A DNA stretch of 32,000 bases from Sinorhizobium meliloti (GTDB taxonomy: Bacteria > Pseudomonadota > Alphaproteobacteria > Rhizobiales > Rhizobiaceae). Shown here in pieces: positions 5,026-28,193 of the stretch. Position numbers and translations under genes: made by a program. How positions within the stretch are numbered: the stretch's first letter is position 1; each line of letters begins with the position of its first letter. The stretch lies in NCBI RefSeq assembly GCF_017876815.1, contig NZ_JAGIOS010000001.1, positions 1,050,001 to 1,082,000 of the forward strand, written 5' to 3'. The notes beneath the pieces are model-generated. The model was given only the letters and a program-made list of their open reading frames with translations, made no database searches and had not been told where the DNA came from.

Positions 5026-5143
5026 GCCAGGATGGGCCGTGAATGAGCTTCCCGCAAGGGGGCGGCGCGACGACTGCCGCGTGGCGCAAAGTCGTCGTCA
5101 TGGTTAACACTCCCTAAACCCGTTTGACCTAAGCTTGCGGATC

Positions 5144-6724
5144 ATGCCCGATCTGCCCGCCTTCATCGCCATCAGGACAGCCGTCGGATCTGCTGAGGAG
5201 ACGACGCAGGGCCTGCGCCGCTCGCTGCCGGCGGCGGAGCGTAGCGAGGCGATCCGGAAGATCGTCGATGCGCTGTCCCGCCATCTCTCCGGCAAGGAGG
5301 TCCTATCCAAGGACGCACTGGTGAAGCTGGTAGAAGACCTGGCGCTCATCCTCAAATTTCCACCCCTGCCGCAGGAGACCGGACGCGCCTTCATTCGGCG
5401 GTTGACCGGCTTCATCGAGGCATTGCCAATGCCGGAACGCCTGCTTCTGGAGAAGCAATTGGCCACCCGCAGCCTCGTGCAGCGCGTCGCCGTTGCGGCG
5501 ACGATCGCGGGAGACCGCCGGGGCGCGGTGCCGCCTGATCGAACCCCGCTCCGCAGCCTGCCCCTGCCGGCACAGGTCCCGCCAGTGCTCCCGGGCGCCA
5601 AAAGACCCGTGCCGAGCGATCTCGCGCTGCTTCAAGCGATGCTCAAGAAGACCTACGGCGCCGATATGGAGGACGTGCGGATCGAGACGACACCCAAGGG
5701 CGCGGCAATCGAAGCGGCGCAGGAGGAGGCTCCAGCCGGGCCGCAACGTTCGCCGAAGGCGCCCACGAACGCTCCTGCAGCGCCGCGAGGTGCGGAGATT
5801 GCAGCGAGAGATGCTTCGGCAAGCCCGCTTGAGGGGGAAATGGCGGAGATGGCGGATACGGCGGCGATGACGCCGGAAGGCTCCGATGAGCAGCTCCCGG
5901 ATAGCGAAGCGGATTTGGCGGAACCATCGGCGCCGCGCCGCAGTCAGGCGGCGGGCCTGAACGGGAGTGCGCTCGCCCTGCCGAAAGATGCAAAACCTGC
6001 GACAGCCGAGGGCAAAGCTGCAGTCGCGGAAGCCGGCGCTGAAAGCCTCCCTGACGGCGAAGGCCCGGAGGGCACCGACGGCCCCTCGCGCTCCGCGAGG
6101 GAGGACGATAGACCACGAGTGCGGACGCAAAGTGCCGCGCGCATGGCGCAACCGCCGGCGGAGGCCTTGAGAGCGGTCATACGCGACAGTCTTGCGCTGC
6201 CGGGGACGAGCAAGAGCTGGCAACCTCGCGACATGGAAGACGCAGGACCGGCCGCGCCCCTGCTGCCGCCGGAGAACGAGGCGCCGGCGCGGCCACGGGA
6301 GACCGCCGGCGCGGTCAGAAGCGCAGCCGCCGCCAGCGAACCGCCGGTGGACGCCGCGTCCGACACAGGAACCGATGCATCTCTCCCCGACCTGCCCCCT
6401 CCTCAGGCAGAGCGCCGGACCGGCGAGGACGCGATGGCGTCGCAGGGCCTCGCGCGGGTGCCGGAAAGCGGACTTCCGCGGGAAATGTTTCCCTTCGCGC
6501 TGGTTCCCTACCCGCCGGCAGAAGAAAGCGATGCCGACGAGGTGGACCGGCGTAAGCGGGAAAGCGAGGGCGAGCCGGAAAAAGACGCCAGGGATGACGA
6601 GGGAGAACGGGAAAGCGACGACCAGCAGCAGGGACATGCGGCCGGCGGCGAACAGGATCGGGCCGAAGATCGACCGGCAGCCGACGCCTATGACCTCTAC
6701 CGAAAGCTCGGTGGCCTGGCCTAG
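5144..6724 (+). CDS. Hypothetical protein: structured N-terminal ~130 aa followed by a long Pro/Ala/Glu/Asp-rich low-complexity tail
   Basis: 526-aa ORF from ATG 5144 (the track start at 5135 is TTG), with GC3-biased codons throughout. The stop codon TAG (6722-6724) lies inside the first 4 bp of the IS701-family terminal repeat. Confidence 0.6.
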   Translation: MPDLPAFIAIRTAVGSAEETTQGLRRSLPAAERSEAIRKIVDALSRHLSGKEVLSKDALVKLVEDLALILKFPPLPQETGRAFIRRLTGFIEALPMPERLLLEKQLATRSLVQRVAVAATIAGDRRGAVPPDRTPLRSLPLPAQVPPVLPGAKRPVPSDLALLQAMLKKTYGADMEDVRIETTPKGAAIEAAQEEAPAGPQRSPKAPTNAPAAPRGAEIAARDASASPLEGEMAEMADTAAMTPEGSDEQLPDSEADLAEPSAPRRSQAAGLNGSALALPKDAKPATAEGKAAVAEAGAESLPDGEGPEGTDGPSRSAREDDRPRVRTQSAARMAQPPAEALRAVIRDSLALPGTSKSWQPRDMEDAGPAAPLLPPENEAPARPRETAGAVRSAAAASEPPVDAASDTGTDASLPDLPPPQAERRTGEDAMASQGLARVPESGLPREMFPFALVPYPPAEESDADEVDRRKRESEGEPEKDARDDEGERESDDQQQGHAAGGEQDRAEDRPAADAYDLYRKLGGLA

Positions 6725-8142
6725 CACTACAGTTGCATATTTATCTATGATCTGAATCTATGGGTCTCCATGATTCGGAGGTCATGGATGGCAGGTGCAT
6801 CAATCGAGACGACGCTTGAGCTTTGGGCATCATCGTTGCGCGACGTGAAGGCTCGCATGCGCGGACTGTTTACGCAGGAGCGAGTTGCAGCCTCTGCGAA
6901 CCTTTTCCTGGACGGCTTGCTGGGTGACGAGCGGCGTAAGACAGGTTGGATGCGTGCTGAGGCGGCCGGTGATCCCGGCCCGTGGCGGCAACAAGCCATT
7001 CTGGGGCGCGGGCGCTGGGACGCGGACGCACTTCGCGACATCGTGCGAGAGTATGTCGTAGAAAACCTCGCCACGGATGATGCGGTCCTGGTCATCGATG
7101 AGACGGGCTTCCTCAAGCAGGGCAAGACATCGTGCGGTGTTGCACGTCAATATACAGGTTCGGCTGGCAAGATAACGAACTGCCAGATCGGTGTGTTCGC
7201 CGCCTATGTGTCCGATCGCGGCCATGCCTTTATCGATCGAGCCCTGTACTTGCCCAAGAGCTGGACTGGCGATCCGGCAAGGCTTGCAGCAGCTCATGTT
7301 CCTCAGGCTACAGCCTTCGCTACCAAGCCAGGCCTGGCTGTCGAGATGATACGGCGTGCGCTGGCAGCCAATGTGCCGTTTTCATGGGTGGCCGCAGATG
7401 CGGTCTATGGCGTCGGGGACATCGAAGGAACCCTGCGCCGAGCCTGCAAAGGCTACGTTCTTGGGGTTAAATCGGACCACCATTTCGGCTCGTGGTCGGG
7501 AAAGCCTCCGGTCGCCGGCACAGCGCAGGAGATCGCCCGTGATCTCGATCCAAGTGCATGGCAGCGTCTTTCCGCCGGTGAGGGCACCAAAGGCGCTCGG
7601 CTTCATGACTGGGCCTATTGCGAACTCGCCGACCTCGATGCCGACGAATACAACGAGACGAAATCTGGGCTTTGGACCCGTGGCCTCCTGATCCGGCGCA
7701 ATATCAGCGACGGTGATCTCGCATTCTTCACCACATGGTGCCCGGCCGGGACGGGCATCCAGACGCTCGTTTCCGTTGAAGGCCATCGCTGGGCGATCGA
7801 AGACAGCTTCGAGACCGCCAAGAACGAGCTCGGACTCGATCACAACGAAACCCGGTCATGGCATGGCTGGCATCGCCACGTCTCCCTCGTCATGCTCGCC
7901 TTCGCCATGATGGCGGTGATCCGATACCGCGCCAATGACGCGACGCCCCAAAAAAGACTGCGGATGCCGACCATCAGGATTTAATCCGCTGGTCTATCCA
8001 GGAAGTCCGACGCATCGCCATAAGACTCGCTCAGCGTCGCATAAGCCCCGCCTACGTCATCGCATGGTCATGCTGGAGGCGCGCCCATCAGGCGGCCGCT
8101 CGACGAGCTCACCTCAAAACTAAAATGCAACTGTAGTGCTAG
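6721..8142 (+). mobile_element. IS701-family insertion sequence (1422 bp)
   Basis: Perfect 18-bp terminal inverted repeats: ctagcactacagttgcat (6721-6738) and atgcaactgtagtgctag (8125-8142). They enclose a single DDE transposase ORF. The outermost CTAG could instead be a 4-bp target duplication. Confidence 0.85.
6788..7984 (+). CDS. IS701-family DDE transposase
   Basis: Motifs VLVIDETGFLKQGKTSCGVARQYTGSAGKITNCQIGVF and HRWAIEDSFETAKNELGLDHNETRSWHGWHRHVSLVMLAF. GGAGG lies 6 nt before the ATG at 6788; the track start at 6770 is also in frame. Confidence 0.9.
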   Translation: MAGASIETTLELWASSLRDVKARMRGLFTQERVAASANLFLDGLLGDERRKTGWMRAEAAGDPGPWRQQAILGRGRWDADALRDIVREYVVENLATDDAVLVIDETGFLKQGKTSCGVARQYTGSAGKITNCQIGVFAAYVSDRGHAFIDRALYLPKSWTGDPARLAAAHVPQATAFATKPGLAVEMIRRALAANVPFSWVAADAVYGVGDIEGTLRRACKGYVLGVKSDHHFGSWSGKPPVAGTAQEIARDLDPSAWQRLSAGEGTKGARLHDWAYCELADLDADEYNETKSGLWTRGLLIRRNISDGDLAFFTTWCPAGTGIQTLVSVEGHRWAIEDSFETAKNELGLDHNETRSWHGWHRHVSLVMLAFAMMAVIRYRANDATPQKRLRMPTIRI

Positions 8143-13350: not shown

Positions 13351-13426
<76 letters not shown>

Positions 13427-13486
13427 AACTCCCCACCCAACAAATTTGATGTTTATTTTCAGTGGCTTAGCCTTGGTCAATCAACT

Positions 13487-13511
13487 CATTCTGACCAACC
13501 ATTCTGACCAA
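13487..13511 (+). repeat. Tandem 13-mer (cattctgaccaac x2), left copy; candidate integrase arm-type site
   Basis: 25/25 identical to 21503-21527 in the same orientation. It lies 58 nt inside attL. Confidence 0.5.
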
Positions 13512-13939: not shown

Positions 13940-14615
13940 ATGTCAGAACTTACCCCCGATCTGGAGGCGCTCAAGCAAGCCTCTACGGCCGATTTATTGG
14001 ATGCCATCGAGGCCCTCTTAAAGATCTCCGTCCGGCCATGTACTACCGCTCACGAGCCTGCCCGTCTGCCCTGGAGCAGCATCATTGAAATCCCCTCTGT
14101 CTTCCAGGTTAGAGGGGAACACACAGACGAGCGACACGCGACTGCTCTCTTCGATGTCCTCAAGCGCGAGAACGACCTGAGGCCGGTTACCGTCTGGCGG
14201 TGCGGCGAGGGAGCAGTGTTACTTGATGGTCATCATCGCCTCCATGCTTACAAGCGGATGCAAGGGCGTTCTCGGGTAGCCGAGGGGGTGCCTGTTGTTT
14301 GGTTCAGGGGCAATTTGGACGACGCGATCAAGGCGGCGGCCGAAGCCAACAATGAGGTCAAACTGCCGCTTAACACCCATCAGCGGATGAACCTGGGGTG
14401 GAGGCTAGTCGTCCTTGATAGGTACTCGAAGAAGGAGACAGCGAAGATGGCTGGCATCAGCGAACGCACAGTGGCTAACATGCGTACCGTCAGGAAGACC
14501 TTGGAGTTGTCAGGAGTCGGTCGTGATGAGCTACCGCTGAACTGGTGGAGAGCATCGAAAGAGGCCCGAAGGTTGGATGCTCGCGAGGAGCGACTGGACT
14601 ATGAGGATTTCAAGT
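13940..14615 (+). pseudogene. ParB/Srx-domain plus HTH protein, 5' part (gene interrupted by IS21-family element)
   Basis: ParB N-terminal motif VLLDGHHRLHAY and HTH KKETAKMAGISERTVANMR. The reading frame runs into the IS at 14616 and terminates there at 14695. It resumes in frame at 17222. Confidence 0.8.
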
Positions 14616-14741
14616 TGCCGATTCCGATGAAGCCGCCCCTTTGTTCCGAGATGATTGCGCCCCCGGTTTCCGGGATGATCTCGCCCCCTGTTTAGTGGGG
14701 TCTGCAGGCGATGATTGTTGTCAGTTCATTCAGGCGAGGTG

Positions 14742-15479
14742 TCAAGCTTTGCGCGGTAGATTTCGGCGCAGACTATCGCCGCTCAATTCGATGCGGTGGG
14801 CATTGTGGACCAACCTGTCGAGTATGGCATCGGCGTAGGTTGGGTCGCCAATGACGCCGTGCCATGCGGACACGGGAAGTTGGCTGGTAATGATCGTTGA
14901 TTTGCGTCCATAGCGATCTTCGAGGATTTCCAGCAGGTCGTGGCGGGCCTGTTCGTTGAGCGGCTCGAGCCCCCAATCATCCAGTATCAGGAGCTGAACA
15001 TGGCCCAAGGTCCGTTGCAGGCGGGCGTAGCGGCCATCACCGCGCGCGAGCGCAAGCTGGGCAAACAGCCTTGGGACACGCTGATAGAGAACTGAGCGAT
15101 CGTCTCGGCAAGCCTTGTGGCCGAGAGCGCAAGCCAACCAACTCTTTCCGACACCCGAGGGGCCGCAAATGGCCAGATTGTCATGGGCGTTGATCCAGTC
15201 GCCACCGAGCAGCTTCATGAAGAGAGCACGGTCGAGGCCGCGGTCGGCGCGATAGTCGACATCTTCTGGGGTGGCCTGGTGGCGAAGCTTGGCAAACCTG
15301 AGGCGTGCCGCAAGCTTCCGATCGTAACGGGAGCTCCATTCCCGTTCGAGCAGCAGTCCGAGCCATTCGGCGTGCGAGAGATGTTCGGCTTCGCCGTTGG
15401 CAACAAGTTCGCCAAAGGCCTTTGCCATGCCGGCCAGGCCCATGGCATTCAATTTATCCAGTGTTGGATGGGCAAGCAT
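14742..15479 (-). CDS. istB: IS21-family helper ATPase IstB
   Basis: 245 aa with Walker A GPSGVGKSW and LLILDDWG. The N-terminus MLAHPTLDKLNAMGLAGMAKAF is typical of IstB. Confidence 0.93.
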   Translation of the reverse strand: MLAHPTLDKLNAMGLAGMAKAFGELVANGEAEHLSHAEWLGLLLEREWSSRYDRKLAARLRFAKLRHQATPEDVDYRADRGLDRALFMKLLGGDWINAHDNLAICGPSGVGKSWLACALGHKACRDDRSVLYQRVPRLFAQLALARGDGRYARLQRTLGHVQLLILDDWGLEPLNEQARHDLLEILEDRYGRKSTIITSQLPVSAWHGVIGDPTYADAILDRLVHNAHRIELSGDSLRRNLPRKA

Positions 15480-15491
15480 CTTTCGTTCTCC

Positions 15492-17042
15492 TTAGTGGTA
15501 ATAGCGAGGTCCGCGGATGTTGGCGTGATGGATCTGTTCATGCGGCGCCGCTCCATTTGAGGCAGCCGTCCGGTCAAGGTGATTGTCGAGGATGGATCGC
15601 ACCGAGCCATAGGTTCGTGCGCCAATCTCCAACGCACGGCCGCAAGCGGCATTGACCCTGTCGCGGCCGAAGCTCTTGTTGAGGCGGATGATGCCGAGGC
15701 AAGCTCGAAAGCCCTGCTCGGGATGAGGCCTGTCGGCAAGAATGCGCTCGCACAACAGCGCAACATCCGGCCCCATCGCAGAGGCTTCGCGTTGAATCCG
15801 TTCAATCGTCCAGTCGGCAAAGCGGCGATGCGCAGAGGGCATATGATCGGGGATCGTCGTGTGCTTGCCGTTGCCGCTGGAGCGCCGGTGAGCGGCAATT
15901 CGCTCGCCCTTGTGGAAGATCTCGATCGTATTGGCGGTGATACGAGCCTCGACCTGCTCGCGGGCAAAGCGATAGGGAACGGAATAATAGTGCCGCTCGA
16001 TCTCGACGTGATAATCCAGCCCGGCGCGCCGGATACGCCATTCGGCAAAGACATAACGTTCGACAGGCAGCGGTCGCAAAGCCGGACGATCAAGCTCCTC
16101 GAACAATTGGCGGCGCGTGGCGCCGACACGGCGCAGAACGCGCTTATCATTGAGATCATGGAGCAATTGGCCAATCGCCGCATTGACCTCGGCCAAACTA
16201 TAGAATGTGCGATGGCGCAGCCGGCCCAACAGCCAACGTTCGACGATACGAACCGCAGCTTCCACTTTCGCCTTGTCCCGCGGGCGTCGCGGCCGCGTCG
16301 GCAAGACGGCGCTGCCATAATGGGCCGCCATCCCGCAATACGTCCGGTTGACCTGGGGATCGAAGTGGCAGGCCTTGATGATCGCTACCTTGGCATTGTC
16401 GGGAACCAGCAAGGCTGGCGCACCGCCAAAGAACTCCAGCGCCAGGATATGGCATTCAATCCAGTCGGGAAGCGTCTCGCTCCAACGTGCCTGCGCATAT
16501 GAAAGGCTGGATGCTCCCAGAACCGCCACGAACAGGTGCGCCTGCCGTGTCTTGCCGGACAGCCGATCAACGACAACCGTGACCGTGTCGCCGGCGTAGT
16601 CGACGAACAGCTTGTCGCCGGCCGCGTGATCCTGCCGCATCGTCACAGGCAACTTCATCGCCCAGCCGCGGTAGAGGTCACAGAAGCGACTGTAACGATA
16701 GCCCTCCGGATAACGGCTGATGTATTCGTCCCAAAGGATCTGCAGCGTCATATGCTTGCGCTTCAGCTCGCGGTGGACCTGCGTCCAGTCCGGCTCAGGG
16801 CTCCGACGATGACCCGTCTTCGTCCCGCCTGCCTTGTAAAGCGCCGCTTCCAGGACTGCATCGCTGATGTCGTCACCCAACGGCCACGATAGCTCCGCAA
16901 TGGCCGCACGCCGAAGCGTCTCGCGCACCGTCGATGGCGCAGCTCCAACCCGAACCGCGATCGACTTGTGGCCAAGTCCTTGTTCGAAGCGATATCTCAA
17001 TATCTCGCGGACACGCCGCATCTCCAGTCTCTCCGCAGGCAT
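15492..17042 (-). CDS. istA: IS21-family transposase IstA
   Basis: 516 aa with an N-terminal HTH (RRVREILRYRFEQGLGHKSIAVRVGAAPSTVRETLRR) and a DDE core (FVDYAGDT..., LLVPDNAKVAI...). Confidence 0.93.
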   Translation of the reverse strand: MPAERLEMRRVREILRYRFEQGLGHKSIAVRVGAAPSTVRETLRRAAIAELSWPLGDDISDAVLEAALYKAGGTKTGHRRSPEPDWTQVHRELKRKHMTLQILWDEYISRYPEGYRYSRFCDLYRGWAMKLPVTMRQDHAAGDKLFVDYAGDTVTVVVDRLSGKTRQAHLFVAVLGASSLSYAQARWSETLPDWIECHILALEFFGGAPALLVPDNAKVAIIKACHFDPQVNRTYCGMAAHYGSAVLPTRPRRPRDKAKVEAAVRIVERWLLGRLRHRTFYSLAEVNAAIGQLLHDLNDKRVLRRVGATRRQLFEELDRPALRPLPVERYVFAEWRIRRAGLDYHVEIERHYYSVPYRFAREQVEARITANTIEIFHKGERIAAHRRSSGNGKHTTIPDHMPSAHRRFADWTIERIQREASAMGPDVALLCERILADRPHPEQGFRACLGIIRLNKSFGRDRVNAACGRALEIGARTYGSVRSILDNHLDRTAASNGAAPHEQIHHANIRGPRYYH

Positions 17043-17213
17043 CCCGTTCCTTCCTCGTCACGTCGAAGGAAGAAACTTCACACCAGCAGAACACCCACGC
17101 CAGATGCTTTCCGATGGGGGCGGCATCATCTCGGAATCAGGGGGCGACTATTTCTCGGAATTGGGGGGCGAGATCATTTCGGAATCAGGGGGCGGATTGC
17201 CTCGGAATTTGCA

Positions 17214-17427
17214 TTTCAAGTACGAGCAGGCGAAGAAGTGGGCAGATCAGCTCGCAAGAACCTTCTCCACGAAGCTTGCAACGTCTCCAGAGATAGCCGC
17301 CATTGCACTCGATATATATCTCGGGGCGAGGGCAGCAGAGGTTGGTCGGCTTCTTCTTGTGGAGACTGGTGATCCCTTGCGGGAGCAGATCGAGGACGAG
17401 ATGGGGGATGATGATCTACCGTTCTGA
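17214..17427 (+). pseudogene. ParB/Srx-HTH protein, 3' part (after the IS21 insertion)
   Basis: Removing the IS and one TSD copy joins ...EERLDYEDFK to YEQAKKWADQLARTFSTKLATSPEIAAIALDIYL...DDLPF* in frame. This gives a 293-aa pre-insertion product. Confidence 0.75.
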
Positions 17428-17608
17428 CGCCTCTAGGTGTGCATCTCATAGACGGTGCAAAATGCATACTCTTAACGTCAGCCACGAATGTCTCGTGGAG
17501 TATTTCGTGATCTCAATCATGATCTGAGGATTAGGTGTGTCCCCCCCCTCCCTCCCGCACCAATTTGGTTGTACATCAAGTACAGCTCGCGCATCACGAG
17601 GGGGAACC

Positions 17609-18187
17609 ATGCTTGAGTTAGTGGACCAGTTCATTCAATCCGGCATTGGGCAGGCCCTGATCATTGCTGCGATTACCGCAGCGGCCGGCAGGTTCTTCAC
17701 CCCGCGAGGTAAGGTGATATGGGCGGTTTCCCACCAACACCATTACCGCATGCCCAACCTGAATGATGGCGGTTTTTTTCCAGTAGTCACTCAGCAGGTC
17801 TGGTTCCAAAACGTAGGCAGATCAGCCATTCAAGACATAGAAATTGTGCTGAACTGGAAGCCTCAACACTTCGAGATCTGGGACCCAAGAAAGTGGGATG
17901 GAGAGCCTCTTTCAGACGGCAGATGGGTGATCCGTGTGCCGTCATTGAACGCGAAGGAGTTCTTTACCGTCTCAATGATCGACACTGTGACTGATCTTCC
18001 TGCGGTCTTGAACGTCCGTTGCTTAGGAGGGGCCGCAACCAACGTGAGGATGGGACCGCAGCGGGTGTTCCCGATGTGGTTTAACGTAGGTGTTGCAGTC
18101 TTCATGTTCATCGGAGTTGTTGCAACGCTTTACTGGCTTCTCCAGTTCGTGATCGCCGCATTGTCACCACCGCGCCTTGACCGTTAG
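17609..18187 (+). CDS. Hypothetical two-TM membrane protein (192 aa), no family recognised
   Basis: GAGGGGGA RBS 4 nt before the ATG at 17609. N-terminal TM (IGQALIIAAITAAAGRFF), ~130-aa beta-rich middle domain, and C-terminal TM (MWFNVGVAVFMFIGVVATLYWLLQFVIAAL). Lower G+C than the core genome. Confidence 0.6.
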   Translation: MLELVDQFIQSGIGQALIIAAITAAAGRFFTPRGKVIWAVSHQHHYRMPNLNDGGFFPVVTQQVWFQNVGRSAIQDIEIVLNWKPQHFEIWDPRKWDGEPLSDGRWVIRVPSLNAKEFFTVSMIDTVTDLPAVLNVRCLGGAATNVRMGPQRVFPMWFNVGVAVFMFIGVVATLYWLLQFVIAALSPPRLDR

Positions 18188-18206: not shown

Positions 18207-18290
18207 TGTCAACCGGCGCTCCAGACTGTCCGGTAGGGTTGACATACCGCTTACGGACATGCTTTCATGTGGACACTACCCTATCGGACA
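18207..18290 (+). promoter_or_regulatory. Putative res/operator region of the serine recombinase
   Basis: Four TGTCC/GGACA pentamers lie within 64 bp (18227, 18255, 18271, 18286). They include the inverted pair tgtccggta (18227-18235) / ttacggaca (18251-18259). A second, interleaved inverted repeat is tgtcaacc (18207-18214) / ggttgaca (18237-18244). TTGACA occurs at 18239-18244. Confidence 0.4.
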
Positions 18291-18301
18291 TGGAGTTCCA
18301 A

Positions 18302-18937
18302 ATGGCAACGTTCCTCTACGCCCGCGTCTCGACCACCGAGCAGTCCCTTGATCACCAGCGAACGCAAGCAGAAAAGGCTGGCTTCACCTTCGACCACGTG
18401 ATCGCAGATCATGGCGTGTCCGGTGTCTCTGTCCTGATGAAAGATCGCCCGGAAGGAAGACGCCTCTTCGACATGCTCCGGAATGGTGACGTGCTGGTCG
18501 TACGCTGGATAGATCGCCTTGGCCGAAACTACGCTGATGTGACAGACACGATCCGCGAGTTCATTCGCCGGGGCGTAATCATCCGCACGATCATCAACAA
18601 CATGACCTTTGACGGCTCCACGACAGACCCCGTCCAAATGGCCGTCAGAGACTCCCTGATCGCTTTCATGGCTGCGACAGCACAGGCCCAGGCGGAAGCC
18701 ACGAAGGAAGCTCAGCGGGCCGCCATTGCCCAGCTGAAGGCCAAGGATGATGGTAGCTACAAGGGACGGAAGCCAAGCTACACGCGCGAACAGTTCTCAC
18801 AGGTCTTGGACATGGACGGTAACGGCGCGTCCGTCTCGGAGATCGCCAAAACCACACGCCTGTCCCGCCAGACGGTCTACCGGATCAAGGAAGACCCGGG
18901 AGCGGCTGAAAAGTCTTTGGCGGTATGGGGCGCGTGA
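18302..18937 (+). CDS. Small serine recombinase (resolvase/invertase family)
   Basis: MATFLYARVSTTEQSLDHQ carries the catalytic Ser motif. Also RWIDRLGRN and a C-terminal HTH (ASVSEIAKTTRLSRQTVYRIK). GGAG lies 6 nt upstream; the track start at 18239 is TTG and covers the res-like region. Confidence 0.9.
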   Translation: MATFLYARVSTTEQSLDHQRTQAEKAGFTFDHVIADHGVSGVSVLMKDRPEGRRLFDMLRNGDVLVVRWIDRLGRNYADVTDTIREFIRRGVIIRTIINNMTFDGSTTDPVQMAVRDSLIAFMAATAQAQAEATKEAQRAAIAQLKAKDDGSYKGRKPSYTREQFSQVLDMDGNGASVSEIAKTTRLSRQTVYRIKEDPGAAEKSLAVWGA

Positions 18938-18969: not shown

Positions 18970-20034
18970 TCACCCATCCCACACGTGTGCGCTCGCGGCA
19001 TCATAGAACTTAACTGCGAGCGGCCATCTCTCACCTCTCAGCCGAGACCTCAGGTTCATGAGAGACTGCGCCTGCTTGATCGCTTCGCGATTTGTGGCGC
19101 TTTCGGGATCTCCGTACAACCCAACTAAGAGATTGGCGACCCCACCCGCCGCAATGCAGCGCAAGACATGAGCATCATTGGGCGCGAGAGAGTGCCCGAA
19201 GACCACCAGCGCACCGGTTCCTGCTTTCATGCAGGCTTCGAAGCTCCGAAGAGCCTTATGGAGGTATGCGTTGTGGAGAATGCGCTCCATTTTGACTGAC
19301 GAGGTGCCCTCGGCAACGAAGACCGGAAACTTGTCCTCGTTAAGAGCGTCGCGGACCTGGTCGACAATCGGCAGATCTGTCTTTGACCAAGTGTACTTCG
19401 TTATCTCAGTCCCGCGGTCGAACAGGTGCAACGCGCCGTGTAGGTAGGAGACGGTGGCGCTAGACGCCTGCTGCCAAGAAACGTAGGGAGCGTCTTCGTT
19501 CTCGATTGGATGACGGAAACCATCATCATGGTTGAGTGGCTGATCCTCGAGGTCGCTGTGCATCAACGCCCAATACAAGAGGACGTCATAGTTCAGGGTG
19601 TAGATAGATCGAAACGGCCTCAAGAATGATCGGCAGGAGCGGTATTGATCGGCAGAGACTTCGTATGGCCGACTGGGATGGCGGCTCGCGATCACCTGGA
19701 CCAATACATCCTTGACAATTTCGGCGTCGTTTCGAAGGCCAGCGGCAAGTTTGGCGAGTTTCGGCCGGTATACCTCGAGAATTCGTGCGGTGTCCGAGAG
19801 GTGGCGGATGATCACTTCAAAGTCCCGCGTTCCCAGCGCGTCAAAGATCTTCCGTAGGTAAGGTGCCCTGGAGAAGTCTGCGTTCTCGTACAGTGAGCCG
19901 TACGTGAAGATGTCTGGCTTCAGCGCGATGCTGAAACCGTTTCCGAGCAACAGGTACTTGTTCGTCGCGCGAGCTATAGACTGCATCGCGTCGGGGTACT
20001 GCATCACTTCAACCAAGAGAGCCTCCGAAACCAC
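18970..20034 (-). CDS. SIR2-like (DUF4917-type) protein, putative NAD+-consuming effector
   Basis: 354 aa from a GTG start, or 344 aa from the ATG at 20004. Four motifs occur in the order seen in SIR2_2/ThsA-type domains: LLLGNGFS (28-35), TLNYD (146-150), YLHG (197-200) and VVFGHSLAPNDAHV (277-290). Confidence 0.8.
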   Translation of the reverse strand: MVSEALLVEVMQYPDAMQSIARATNKYLLLGNGFSIALKPDIFTYGSLYENADFSRAPYLRKIFDALGTRDFEVIIRHLSDTARILEVYRPKLAKLAAGLRNDAEIVKDVLVQVIASRHPSRPYEVSADQYRSCRSFLRPFRSIYTLNYDVLLYWALMHSDLEDQPLNHDDGFRHPIENEDAPYVSWQQASSATVSYLHGALHLFDRGTEITKYTWSKTDLPIVDQVRDALNEDKFPVFVAEGTSSVKMERILHNAYLHKALRSFEACMKAGTGALVVFGHSLAPNDAHVLRCIAAGGVANLLVGLYGDPESATNREAIKQAQSLMNLRSRLRGERWPLAVKFYDAASAHVWDG

Positions 20035-20158: not shown

Positions 20159-21505
20159 TTATCCACCGCTAGGGAGCATCACCGCCTCAATACACGCCTT
20201 CAACTGAGCTGCGGACGCTCCGGTGGTATAAACGCCAAAGGTGATGTCCTTCTTCTTGTCTGCCTTGTGGCCCACGACATCCCTGATCGTCTCGATCTGT
20301 TGGCCAGCGTGCCGTGCTTCGGTGATGAACCATCTCCGAGCAGAGTGAAAGTTGACGAGGCTGCGTCTCTTACCCGGCCGCTTGTCGTCTACCTGGAGCA
20401 GCACCCGAAAGCGGTTGAAGCGTTTGCCGAATGTGTCCCCAGGGTCACGCAAGCCTGCCAATTCGTGGAAGAGCCAGTCCCTAGCTTCCTTCCCCTCGGT
20501 TCGCCGCTGAATGATCTCCGCCAGAGCAGGATGGATCGGCACCTTACGAGCGGCTGCTTCGGTCTTGCCTTGCTGAATGTCGAAGACCCCATCGTGAACG
20601 TCTTCGATCCACAGCGTCAGCACCTCCGCTTGCCGCATACCTGAGAGGCAGGAGATCGTCAGCGCATCTCGCAGAAGAAGCTCCCAGTCGGGATCGATGC
20701 CGTCCGGGTACCGAGCATAGAGCAGCCGCTTCAACTCATCCTCGGTATATGGTCGCTCTTCCTCTCTCTCCCCCCTCTCCACGCGCCTGCGCTTGCTAAC
20801 CACTTCCTGACCAAGCCAGGGATTATCCTTCAACTCCCCCGTCACGTGTCCTCTCATAAGCAGGTATTCCCAGTAGCCGCGAAGAGCCGTCATGTGCTTC
20901 TTCGCCGTGCTACGGTCCATCGGCTCGATCACTTCCGTCACGTAGCGACCCGCTGTCTTCCGGGTTATGTCAGGCAGCCTGAACTTCTCAGCAAGGCACC
21001 ATCGGGCAAAGTGGTTGAGGACGCCCCGACGTTCAGCGGTGGTCTTTGGGGCTAGCTTGATGGCACCGAGGTACGCATCGAAGTGGTGGTCAATAGGATG
21101 GTCACCAACGAAGGCGCGGGCGAAGCGTTCGCGGGCCTCTTCCTTCAGGGCGTCCTCTTCCGCCTCAGCGGCCCAAACGAGGTCTTGCAGGGCCTCACTA
21201 TCACCGCTCTGCGTGACGGCAGCCATAGCTTCCCGGTAAATCTGCCCTCGCTGCTCGGCTATCTCTTCCGCTGAGGTGATGATCTCCCCAGCCTTCACGC
21301 GGGCGAAGAGCGTTCGAACTTCCCGTTCAAGGATGTCGCGCTGTGCCATGGCTTGTTTGATGTCGCCCGTGTTCAGGCTTTGCATGTACATCGTCTTCCC
21401 GTCGAAGTGGTCTAGACAGGCAGCAGGTACCGCCATGCGAAACCACCAAGTCTGCCCCCGCAAGTCCAGCAATCGCTTGGACCCTTTGCTGCTCTTTCCC
21501 GCCAT
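20159..21505 (-). CDS. int: Tyrosine recombinase / phage-type integrase of the island
   Basis: 448 aa from ATG 21505 (MAGKSSKGSKRLLDLRGQTWWFRMAV). Catalytic signature: LSGMRQAEV (Arg), HSARRWF (H-x-x-R), VGHK (His), FGVYTTG (Tyr). The track start at 21547 is TTG. Confidence 0.9.
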   Translation of the reverse strand: MAGKSSKGSKRLLDLRGQTWWFRMAVPAACLDHFDGKTMYMQSLNTGDIKQAMAQRDILEREVRTLFARVKAGEIITSAEEIAEQRGQIYREAMAAVTQSGDSEALQDLVWAAEAEEDALKEEARERFARAFVGDHPIDHHFDAYLGAIKLAPKTTAERRGVLNHFARWCLAEKFRLPDITRKTAGRYVTEVIEPMDRSTAKKHMTALRGYWEYLLMRGHVTGELKDNPWLGQEVVSKRRRVERGEREEERPYTEDELKRLLYARYPDGIDPDWELLLRDALTISCLSGMRQAEVLTLWIEDVHDGVFDIQQGKTEAAARKVPIHPALAEIIQRRTEGKEARDWLFHELAGLRDPGDTFGKRFNRFRVLLQVDDKRPGKRRSLVNFHSARRWFITEARHAGQQIETIRDVVGHKADKKKDITFGVYTTGASAAQLKACIEAVMLPSGG

Positions 21506-21527
21506 TCTGACCAACCATTCTGACCAA
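21503..21527 (+). repeat. Tandem 13-mer (cattctgaccaac x2), right copy; overlaps the int start codon
   Basis: 25/25 identical to 13487-13511. It lies 59 nt inside attR, and the int ATG is the complement of 21503-21505. Confidence 0.5.
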
Positions 21528-21586
21528 CCTATAACCGGGATTAGCAAGTAAAAACAGGATTTTCAATGGGGTAGCGCCGGAGATCG

Positions 21587-21610
21587 TCGATCCCGCTTAG
21601 CTCCACCAAA
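21587..21610 (+). repeat. attR core (duplicated tRNA-Ala 3' end)
   Basis: 24/24 identity with 13405-13428. Confidence 0.85.
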
Positions 21611-26795: not shown

Positions 26796-26835
26796 ATCGC
26801 GTGATTGCCACGCTGCCCACGGCGGTTGGATGAGG

Positions 26836-26863
26836 CCCCTCCCTAACCCCTCCCCACAAGGGG
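26836..26863. repeat. REP/RIME-like G/C-tract palindromic unit (left copy, target of the ISAs1 insertion)
   Basis: cccctccctaacccctccccacaagggg. The extended span 26836-26869, which includes the first 6 nt of the IS, matches 28136-28169 in reverse complement at 33/34 positions. Confidence 0.6.
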
Positions 26864-28029
26864 CAGGGGAATCGCATTTAGCAAATAAGCGGTTGTTTTG
26901 TTGCGGCAAATCGATTCTTGGAGTTCTCCGCTGACTTGGAGGTCTCGATGAGTAGATTTGCCGCTTGCTTTGAAGATTTGCCCGATCCGCGCGGTCGCAA
27001 TGCGCGCCATCCGTTGACGTCGATCCTGTTCATTGCCGTTGCGGCGATTGTCTGCGGTGCGGAAAGCTGTACCGATATGGCCGATTTCGGCGTTGCCAAG
27101 AAGAAATGGCTGAAGACAATCGTGCCGCTGCCCTATGGCATTCCCAGCCATGACACCTTCTCCACCGTCTTCCGCCATCTCGATCCGGATGCCTTTGACG
27201 CGGCCTTTCGCCGTCTCACGGCGAGCTTTGCGCAGGGTCTCGAAGGGGTGGTAGCGATCGATGGCAAGGCGGTGCGCGGTGCCTACCGGCGCGCCGCCAA
27301 GGCCACGCCACTCCACTTCGTCAATGTCTGGGCTGCCGGTCCCGGTCTGGTCATCGGCCAAAAGCTCGCGCCGGGCCGCAATGAGGTGCAAGGGGCTCTC
27401 GATGCGCTCGCGCTGCTGGCACTGGAGGGCTCTATCGTCACCGCCGATGCCCTGCATTGCCGGCCCGACACCGCCCGCGCCATCCTCGCTGCCGGCGGCG
27501 ATTATGCTCTGGCACTGAAGGCCAACCAGCCCGGCCTCTTGGCCCAGGCGCTCGCCCGCATCGAGGACGCCGACCACGTCGAGAGCATCCAGATTGCAGC
27601 CGAGACTGCCCATGACCGCACCGAGACACGCCGCGCCAGCGTTGTGGCTGTCGACGATATCAACTTTCCGGGCCTGCAGGCCATCGGCTGCGTCGAGACC
27701 ACAAGCCGTCATACCAACGGCCATTTGACCAGCCATGTCCGCTACTTCCTGCTCTCCACCACCATGTCGCCGAGCGCGCTGATCGAGGTTGTAAGAACCC
27801 ATTGGCAAATCGAAAACAAACTGCATTGGGTTCTGGATGTCCACTTCCGCGAGGACGCCGCCAGAAACCGCAAGGACAACGGCCCTCAGAACATTGCCTT
27901 CTTGCGCAAGATCGCTCTCAACCTCTTGCGATCTCACCCCGACAAGGCCTCCATCCGCCGGAAAATCAAAAAGGCGGGCTGGGATGACCAATTCCTCACT
28001 TCTCTTATCGCTCATATGCGATAGCCCTG
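26864..28029 (+). mobile_element. ISAs1-family insertion sequence (~1166 bp)
   Basis: Imperfect terminal inverted repeats caggggaatcgcat / atgcgatagccctg. A 10-bp direct repeat ccacaagggg flanks the element at 26854-26863 and 28030-28039. Single transposase ORF. The boundaries are uncertain by a few bp because the IS ends resemble the target. Confidence 0.8.
26948..28024 (+). CDS. ISAs1-family transposase (H-repeat-associated type)
   Basis: MSRFAACFEDLPDPRGRNARHPLTSILFIAVAAIVCGAESCTDMADFG and VRTHWQIENKLHWVLDVHFREDAARNRKDNGPQNIAFLRKIALNLL. GGAGG lies 6 nt upstream of the ATG at 26948. Confidence 0.9.
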   Translation: MSRFAACFEDLPDPRGRNARHPLTSILFIAVAAIVCGAESCTDMADFGVAKKKWLKTIVPLPYGIPSHDTFSTVFRHLDPDAFDAAFRRLTASFAQGLEGVVAIDGKAVRGAYRRAAKATPLHFVNVWAAGPGLVIGQKLAPGRNEVQGALDALALLALEGSIVTADALHCRPDTARAILAAGGDYALALKANQPGLLAQALARIEDADHVESIQIAAETAHDRTETRRASVVAVDDINFPGLQAIGCVETTSRHTNGHLTSHVRYFLLSTTMSPSALIEVVRTHWQIENKLHWVLDVHFREDAARNRKDNGPQNIAFLRKIALNLLRSHPDKASIRRKIKKAGWDDQFLTSLIAHMR

Positions 28030-28135: not shown

Positions 28136-28169
28136 CCCCTCCCCCTTGTGGGGAGGGGTTAGGGAGGGG
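28136..28169. repeat. REP/RIME-like palindromic unit (right, inverted copy)
   Basis: cccctcccccttgtggggaggggttagggagggg. It is an inverted copy of 26836-26869 and is internally hairpin-forming (cccctcccc/ggggagggg). Confidence 0.6.
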
Positions 28170-28193
28170 TCACATTACGGCAAATAAATCGAC

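Follow-up and report, generated by a model that had tools for sequence, protein, structure and literature searches.

A stand-alone SIR2-fold protein of the DUF4917 family (Pfam PF16263) was found to be encoded on an integrative island of Sinorhizobium meliloti, within a stretch of 32,000 nucleotides (NCBI RefSeq assembly GCF_017876815.1, contig NZ_JAGIOS010000001.1, positions 1,050,001 to 1,082,000; hereafter the window). The gene occupies positions 18970–20034 of the minus strand of the window, and the open reading frame (ORF) specifies 354 amino acids as annotated, from a GTG start. With slightly better than even confidence, we propose from the sequence and a structural model that this protein, the gene for which is cargo of an island at a tRNA-Ala gene, consumes NAD+ as the effector of a single-gene system of anti-phage defense or abortive infection. 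An earlier interpretation made from the DNA letters (the sequence-only reading) had presented the gene as an undescribed module without an assigned function. This portion of the proposal is not supported. The protein matches the PADLOC family PDC-S21 (model PDLC04960, E = 9.2e-121, positions 3–335 of 336; model PDLC04961, E = 1.1e-66), a DUF4917 protein has been published from Campylobacter jejuni under the name SliP, and there are partnerless precedents in AbiH and in the "sole-Sir2" protein. The window gene is thus a good example of a catalogued candidate family and not a new kind of system.

The assignment to DUF4917 itself was borne out by a full-length match to PF16263 (model positions 1–311 of 311, E = 7.7e-63, 213.2 bits relative to a cutoff of 28 bits). 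The four motifs that had been picked out in the sequence-only reading are all present: LLLGNGFS at residues 28–35, TLNYD at 146–150, YLHG at 197–200, and VVFGHSLAPNDAHV at 277–290. Their conservation was determined with an alignment of the query and 105 homologs (106 sequences, 33–59% identity to the query). This alignment contains 21 invariant columns, including G31, N32, G33, F34, and S35 of the first motif, Y149 and D150 of the second, H199 and G200 of the third, and G280 and D287 of the fourth; N148 and H289 are conserved in at least 90% of the sequences. Since the whole of the PF16263 model is matched and the cores of the motifs are invariant, the motifs are not a chance occurrence. On the minus strand of the window, the codons for G31 through S35, the putative NAD-binding glycine loop equivalent to GAGxS, are at 19930–19944. 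The codons for N148-Y149-D150, with the predicted catalytic Asn and Asp, are at 19585–19593, and those for H199-G200, with the predicted catalytic His, are at 19435–19440. The C-terminal Rossmann motif from G280 to H289 (GHSLAPNDAH) is encoded at 19168–19197.

A search of 1.84 billion representative proteins (E ≤ 1e-3) returned approximately 2,470 clusters of homologs at 50% identity, nearly all of them 330–370 amino acids in length and with PF16263 as their single domain. The family is spread over Proteobacteria, Firmicutes, Deinococcus, and the spirochaetes. The nearest database relative of the window protein is 90% identical to it, with the close orthologs covering a range of 58–90% identity, and nothing separates the window protein from the DUF4917 family, of which it is a rhizobial member. 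The likely start of the gene is a TTG codon at 20016–20014 (codon 7 of the annotated ORF), because a GGAGG sequence at 20026–20022 precedes it with a 5-nt spacer and the resulting product of 348 amino acids agrees with the homolog length of 347–349. The choice of start codon is without effect on any of the conclusions.

An AlphaFold2 model was calculated using the 106-sequence alignment, with a mean predicted local distance difference test (pLDDT) score of 95.3 and a predicted template modeling (pTM) score of 0.92. When this model was compared by Foldseek with the structures in the Protein Data Bank (PDB), the top match was the SIR2 subunit of SIR2-HerA from Escherichia coli (E = 2.9e-11, TM-score 0.56–0.61, approximately 14% identity). 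The next ranks were taken by the SIR2 protein of the Paenibacillus SIR2-HerA system and then by ThsA of Thoeris (E = 1.5e-5). Human SIRT2 and yeast Sir2 were found at E-values of approximately 3e-4 and above, with TM-scores of about 0.37. The SIR2 fold that had been suspected from the motifs is therefore supported by the model, and the closest matches are defense NADases. The SIR2-fold domain covers the 354 residues completely, and neither Pfam nor the model contains a fused sensor domain, in agreement with the sequence-only reading.

The putative catalytic residues were mapped onto the SIR2 chain of PDB entry 8W9L. A search of the PDB chains with the single sequence (phmmer) found no relative. 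In a profile alignment to 8W9L that was itself non-significant (E = 0.72), and that was used for residue mapping alone after the fold search had set the relationship, N148-Y149-D150 falls on N163-Y164-D165 and H199 falls on H212. The paper describing 8W9L names N163, D165, and H212 as catalytic, and its catalytic mutants lose protection against T7. The prior suggestion that H199 is the catalytic histidine agrees with this alignment and with the invariance of the residue in the family. It is also stated in the 8W9L paper that the zinc ribbon is needed for deacetylase activity and is absent from the bacterial defense SIR2 proteins. The window protein has three cysteines, two of which are unconserved while C134 is present in 77 of the 106 sequences, and there is no Cys4 or CxxC arrangement. 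As judged from the alignment, DUF4917 has no conserved cysteine and therefore lacks the sirtuin zinc ribbon.

SIR2 chemistry permits transfer as well as hydrolysis, and sirtuins are not known to be inhibited by trichostatin A (TSA) or butyrate. As has been proposed for SliP, the window protein could alternatively be a sirtuin that uses NAD+ to modify specific target proteins, either as a deacylase or as an ADP-ribosyltransferase. It might then regulate proteins of the host or the island, or be an exported effector, without depletion of NAD+. We regard this as quite unlikely. In a full-text search, the functional literature on DUF4917 was found to consist of one line of work, on SliP of C. jejuni (CJJ81176_0779). 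This DUF4917 protein has been interpreted as a flagellar-secreted sirtuin/histone deacetylase that activates neutrophils, and thus as a virulence factor. SliP was reported to consume NAD+ and to catalyze the deacetylation of lysine with stimulation by NAD+ and Zn, which supports a protein-modifying role, as does the fact that the fold of the window protein also matches human SIRT2 and yeast Sir2. The activities of SliP are weak, however, with an approximately 2-fold loss of NAD+ and a 3.8-fold deacetylation compared with 12-fold for SIRT2, and the deacetylation was blocked by TSA and butyrate. The hydrolysis of NAD+ by SliP in vitro requires G24 and G26, which are equivalent to G31 and G33 of the window protein. 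The sliP gene, which is variably present among isolates, shares an operon with the gene for a type I restriction R subunit (hsdR), and this too argues against a protein-modifying role.

The properties of the window protein and its family point in the same direction. The fold is far closer to the defense NADases (TM-score of about 0.6) than to the sirtuins, no match to the canonical SIR2 family (PF02146) was obtained for the window protein in the Pfam scans, conserved cysteines and the zinc ribbon are missing from DUF4917, and nothing in the window pointed to a secretion signal or to a neighboring secretion system. SliP and the window protein were compared at the level of the family; they share PF16263 and the NAD-binding glycine loop, and they differ in the secreted-virulence interpretation given to SliP, for which there is no hint in the window organism. 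NADase chemistry, rather than that of a transferase or deacylase, is thus the activity that we would expect of the window protein.

DUF4917 is a distinct family inside the defense-type SIR2 superfamily ("SIRim"), which includes ThsA, DSR2, the SIR2 protein of SIR2-HerA, and AbiH. Among the 106 aligned sequences, 61 weakly match SIR2_2 (PF13289; best E = 3.6e-7) and 38 weakly match AbiH (PF14253; best E = 4e-5), compared with one or two for any unrelated Pfam family. The matches to AbiH and SIR2_2 are collinear and span the catalytic core. In 20 members that were inspected singly, the SIR2_2 scores did not exceed 23.1 bits, relative to a gathering score of 24.5 bits; the gathering score for AbiH is 30.9 bits. 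Of the two Pfam families to which the sequence-only reading had pointed, DUF4917 was thus confirmed, whereas SIR2_2 survives as a link at the level of the superfamily. With the exception of PDC-S21, the PADLOC models gave no match to the window protein at E ≤ 0.01.

AbiH, a single-gene lactococcal abortive infection (Abi) protein that was cloned in 1996, resembles DUF4917 in being a sirtuin-like protein that stands alone, and its phage resistance is proven. A review from 2026 describes AbiH as sirtuin-like, borne on integrative and conjugative elements (ICEs), and "possibly" NAD-depleting, with an unknown mechanism, and a preprint places it among the immune SIRim proteins. AbiH differs from the window protein in belonging to a separate Pfam family, and by the Pfam and PADLOC models the relation is remote.

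A mechanism can be proposed for the favored explanation, in which the window protein is an NAD+-consuming effector. NAD+ would be bound at the glycine loop and hydrolyzed with the participation of N148, D150, and H199. The helical small domain (approximately residues 40–140) would hold the NAD+ pocket shut until an infection cue opens it, either by binding to the small domain or its hypervariable hairpin tip, by driving oligomerization, or by both. The ensuing collapse of NAD+ would abort the replication of the phage. The sequence-only reading had regarded it as an open question how a SIR2 protein without a sensor would be kept inactive. An answer for relatives had already been published: in the SIR2 protein of SIR2-HerA and in ThsA, access to the NAD+ pocket is obstructed sterically by the small domain, and the authors described this as a conserved mechanism of regulation. 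The tip of the helical hairpin in the small domain of the window protein (approximately residues 81–110, codons at 19705–19794 of the minus strand, between the modeled helices 72–89 and 91–118) has the highest column entropy in the alignment. It is a candidate for a sensing or autoinhibitory surface. The loop at 161–170 and the C-terminal helix at 311–339 are the other most variable stretches.

The known SIR2 effectors provide a frame for this proposal. The SIR2 protein of SIR2-HerA (Nezha / GAO_19; PDB entries 8SUB and 8W9L) is the best structural match, with the aligned N, D, and H residues and a helical small domain; it differs from the window protein in having a HerA partner gene and in its identity of only about 14%. 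ThsA, DSR1/DSR2, and SIR2-APAZ/pAgo share the SIR2-fold NADase type of effector and differ in possessing fused SLOG or Macro domains, large C-terminal sensor domains, or APAZ domains, or in having ThsB or pAgo partners. None of these features was found in the single-domain model, among the neighbors of 45 clusters of homologs, or by PADLOC in four other ORFs of the island. The sole-Sir2 protein of a CRISPR-supervised system, of approximately 440 amino acids, protects E. coli against T2 and T4 and converts NAD+ to ADP-ribose (ADPR). Compared by shared fold only, it is similar to DUF4917 in being a small partnerless protein of the sirtuin type, and it is unlike DUF4917 in that its N terminus is extended by an additional region and its SIR2 domain resembles that of DSR2. 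The vertebrate protein FAM118B/SIRanc is described as a stand-alone immune-type sirtuin that works by filament formation; on the same basis of shared fold it resembles DUF4917 in its lack of a partner and differs in being eukaryotic.

The absence of an operon partner, as claimed in the sequence-only reading, was supported by a comparison of homolog neighborhoods. For this purpose, 59 homolog loci taken from genomes and plasmids, from IMG/VR contigs, and from look-ups in assemblies were reduced to 45 clusters at 90% identity, and the neighboring genes were clustered by BLASTP. No conserved partner, antitoxin, or sensor gene was found among the 45 non-redundant loci. The commonest neighbor family occurs at 8 of the 45 clusters, and families of this kind are backbone genes of P2-like prophages. 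There is no HerA-like ORF in the island, and none is conserved beside the 45 homolog clusters. DUF4917 is a single-gene system without an obligatory partner.

The gene immediately adjacent to the DUF4917 gene in the window encodes a serine recombinase of the resolvase/invertase type (18239–18937, plus strand; Pfam Resolvase and HTH_7), which is convergent with it across a gap of 32 bp. This recombinase was considered as a promoter-flipping switch or as part of a co-travelling module, and both possibilities were rejected. Serine recombinases are located near 7 of the 45 clusters and are not orthologous to one another. Where the DUF4917 proteins are 50–81% identical, the recombinases are 27% identical or do not match at all; those of the window and of Rhizobium leguminosarum are 27% identical, while the corresponding DUF4917 proteins are 81% identical. 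No convincing inverted repeats of the sort expected to bound an invertible stretch of DNA were found around the DUF4917 gene or in its upstream region. The serine recombinase is either island cargo or mobility machinery and is not a functional partner.

The DUF4917 gene is cargo of an island of 8.2 kb, as the sequence-only reading had supposed. The integration target is a tRNA-Ala(GGC) gene identified by ARAGORN (13351–13426, plus strand), the 3′ end of which contains the attL core, a 24-nt direct repeat at 13405–13428. An exact second copy, the attR core, is at 21587–21610, also on the plus strand. An empty-site locus from a sister strain (L067), found by way of the flanking Fur protein, was aligned with the window using blastn; it is 100% identical up to 13428 and 99.9% identical from 21587 onward. 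Since the two alignments overlap by precisely the 24-nt core, the limits of the island, including one att copy, are 13429 and 21610. Identical copies of this Fur protein are indexed in 2,135 blocks of the assembly collection; the eight long contigs listed for it all have an empty site. The DUF4917 protein itself occurs on only 16 contigs, with an identical sequence in each and always within the same island.

The other particulars of the island in the sequence-only reading were also reproduced. The DUF4917 gene lies 124 bp downstream of the gene for a tyrosine integrase (20159–21547; Pfam DUF6538 and Phage_integrase), and both are on the minus strand; the annotated start of the integrase in identical public loci is 21505. 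The G+C content is lower than that of the surrounding DNA, with values of 0.562 for the DUF4917 ORF and 0.578 for the island relative to 0.634 and 0.625 for the two flanks. At the third codon position, the G+C content is 0.68 in the DUF4917 gene and 0.83 in a core gene.

The neighborhoods of the homologs are rich in defense genes and mobile DNA, which agrees qualitatively with the candidate defense module on an island that the sequence-only reading had proposed. In E. coli, where DUF4917 is present in 36 of 5,426 complete genomes, and in Klebsiella pneumoniae, an ICE carries the gene, with retron Eco8 on one side of it and an ABC-3C system plus a restriction endonuclease on the other. In Rhodopseudomonas palustris, it is flanked by a BstA_C gene and by a TacAT pair, and the Ferrovibrio copy belongs to an integrase island that also has a Dcm/NaeI/Vsr system. 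The chromosome of R. leguminosarum carries an 81–82% identical DUF4917 protein at the same tRNA-Ala/FYDLN hot spot (L021), and a gasdermin-protease gene is found nearby, at a distance of a few kb. In a group of P2-like prophages, DUF4917 occupies the moron slot between the baseplate gene gpV and the tail-completion gene gpS, and P2 is known to harbor defense systems in its tail-gene hotspots. In other prophages, it is near terminase, lysis, or integrase genes. No homolog was found by tblastn in 50,697 GenBank phage records or by Foldseek among the viral structures of BFVD, where the best match (E = 1.8e-3) was to generic sirtuins, but the predicted prophages of IMG/VR do carry DUF4917.

Several other observations were made at these loci. 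In related rhizobia (L021 and the metagenomic loci L023–L025), the tRNA-Ala/FYDLN hot spot is occupied by different cargo. In one case at this hot spot, DUF4917 is accompanied solely by an integrase remnant of 84 amino acids, and an NrtR-nadABC cluster is found approximately 1.5 kb beyond; the proximity of this cluster to DUF4917 is probably coincidental. In P2-like prophages (L030–L038, L043, and L044), a called ORF for a co-oriented membrane protein of approximately 124–144 amino acids is immediately upstream of DUF4917, and the one at L035 (7543–7962) matches Pfam DUF6232. This protein was considered as a general partner of DUF4917 and rejected, since it is confined to the P2-like prophage subgroup. 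Within that subgroup it could act as a partner, or it could be an exclusion gene in its own right.

The association with type I restriction-modification (R-M) systems deserves separate consideration. In two loci (L004 and L039), DUF4917 is found inside type I R-M operons, with the gene orders hsdM-hsdS-DUF4917-RhuM-hsdR-YgjP and hsdM-RhuM-hsdS-x-DUF4917-hsdR-YgjP. The same two operons also hold a RhuM-family gene and end with a gene for a YgjP-like metallopeptidase, so that several accessory genes are nested within them. DUF4917 directly flanks type I operons on a plasmid of Methylobacter and on pRL11 of Rhizobium johnstonii, where it is also beside a DUF262 gene. Embedding of this kind matches the signal used in the nomination of the phage defense candidates (PDCs) from which PDC-S21 takes its name. 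The PDCs are 145 explicitly untested candidates derived by guilt-by-embedding in a 2024 preprint on embedded systems, in which nomination rested on the occurrence of homologs inside operons for BREX, DISARM, or type I R-M. No mention of PDC-S21 was found in a full-text search of the literature.

These loci suggest an alternative in which the protein is a guard of type I R-M, similar to PrrC, that stays silent as long as the R-M complex is intact, that is fired when a phage anti-restriction protein disables this complex, and that in the window organism would act in trans with an R-M system elsewhere in the genome. PrrC is a precedent for such a guard and the PDCs were derived from such embedding; the position of DUF4917 between hsdS and hsdR at two loci, the flanking of type I operons on two plasmids, and the hsdR operon of C. 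jejuni are all in accord with it. Only 4 of the 45 non-redundant loci adjoin type I R-M genes, however, and most copies, including that of the window, have no type I R-M system within 10 kb. Moreover, the 2024 preprint shows that many unrelated autonomous defense systems are also found embedded. We consider a guard function for the window protein to be decidedly improbable.

A broader version of the favored explanation, which we find quite unlikely, would make DUF4917 a minimal self-contained immune sirtuin, in which one domain of approximately 350 residues both senses and kills, with the hairpin as the receptor. The repeated finding of DUF4917 inside type I R-M operons would then mean that at least some members of the family are PrrC-like guards of type I R-M, fired by phage anti-restriction proteins, that deplete NAD+. 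As a corollary, SliP would be primarily a phage defense protein.

The favored explanation of the window protein as an anti-phage effector must also be weighed against a benefit to the mobile element itself. DUF4917 could be a toxin for addiction or stabilization, or it could be directed against plasmids, ICEs, and prophages that compete with the element. The gene is nearly always found on islands, ICEs, plasmids, and prophages, often amid toxin-antitoxin genes, and the short pAgo-SIR2 systems are reported to act on plasmids as well as on phages. Carriage on mobile elements is equally typical of true anti-phage systems, however, and no conserved antitoxin-like partner was found at the homolog loci. 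Inactivated alleles of DUF4917 are common: the gene is split by IS1A in several E. coli chromosomes, consists of two separate pieces on each of two plasmids of Leptospira, and is truncated in one metagenome-assembled genome (L005); some alleles are frameshifted. Evidently, bacteria can do without the gene, and its loss is frequent. Addiction is disfavored because alleles disrupted by insertion sequences (ISs) persist without loss of the surrounding element. A benefit to the element is, on balance, unlikely.

The same inactivated alleles raise the possibility that the DUF4917 gene of the window is a passenger, either silent or in decay. An IS21 element has partly degraded the island, and a scan for sigma-70 promoters found none, although such a scan is uninformative for this type of organism. 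The ORF is nevertheless of full length, all of the invariant residues are intact, and the protein is identical on the 16 contigs that carry it. A passenger gene in this strain is accordingly very improbable.

A number of points weigh against the explanation that we favor, namely an NAD+-consuming anti-phage effector. No member of DUF4917 or PDC-S21 has been reported to protect against phage, the PDCs being untested in the words of their authors, and the SliP paper, which is the sole experimental work on the family, gives a different role as a secreted deacetylase. The window protein by itself has no match to SIR2_2 or AbiH in Pfam at E ≤ 1, and the search of the PDB chains with the 106-sequence profile was not significant (best match, the SIR2 chain of 8W9L). 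As the sequence and profile searches fell short of significance, the catalytic assignment is based on the predicted fold and the alignment of motifs. The proposed autoinhibition and trigger are extrapolated from relatives of approximately 14% identity, and the variability of the hairpin tip could reflect weak structural constraint. No PADLOC defense model was matched by the four other island ORFs that were scanned; since the island of the window has no recognizable defense neighbor, the evidence from defense contexts comes from the homologs. This evidence is qualitative because the sample of plasmids, IMG/VR contigs, and a few genomes is tilted toward mobile DNA.

DUF4917 is a large and unvalidated family found in defense islands, prophage moron slots, and type I R-M operons, and the single experimental paper on it concerns an unrelated role in virulence. 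If it were validated as a one-domain NADase defense system, this would provide a mechanism for a PADLOC candidate and probably also for AbiH, which has been known for 30 years. It would also be the simplest setting for studying how infection is recognized by a SIR2 domain on its own, and it would prompt a re-reading of SliP. The contribution of the window itself is modest. It provides a small, well-delimited island with a clean and intact candidate for testing, and strains with an empty site, which could serve as hosts, are abundant in the species and make up the majority in the genus.

The remainder of the island is composed of a hypothetical gene, an IS, and the interrupted gene into which the latter was inserted. 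The hypothetical protein is encoded by an ORF of 216 amino acids (17537–18187, plus strand; annotated as 192 amino acids), matches no family, and does not recur beside other DUF4917 genes. The IS21-family element (14630–17198, minus strand) contains istA and istB, with matches to IstB_IS21 and Mu-transpos_C_2, and has terminal inverted multi-repeats composed of 24-nt units at 17116–17194 with inverted copies at 14631–14693. It splits a ParB-like gene with a DGHHR motif into segments at 13940–14695 and 17104–17427. In a sister assembly (L008), a second copy of IS21 is present at this locus.

A 25-nt sequence composed of two 13-nt units (CATTCTGACCAAC) is found in the same orientation at 13487–13511 and 21503–21527, approximately 60 bp inside each end of the island, and a copy of 72% identity is at 21490–21514. 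The right-hand copy overlaps the annotated start of the integrase. These copies could be arm-type binding sites for the integrase or for an excisionase.

Two further ISs are located in the window outside of the island, and both are absent from the empty-site locus L067. The first (6721–8142) has terminal inverted repeats of 21 nt and encodes a transposase of 404 amino acids (6770–7984). It is inserted directly at the end of an ORF of 529 amino acids (5135–6724), which specifies a low-complexity product with a high content of Ala, Pro, and Glu; this ORF lies in a stretch with a G+C content of approximately 0.71 and a strong AT skew. The second of these strain-specific ISs, with a DDE_Tnp_1 transposase, is at 26864–28029, and the arms of a 40-nt palindromic repeat that is rich in G+C are found around it at 26830–26869 and 28136–28175.

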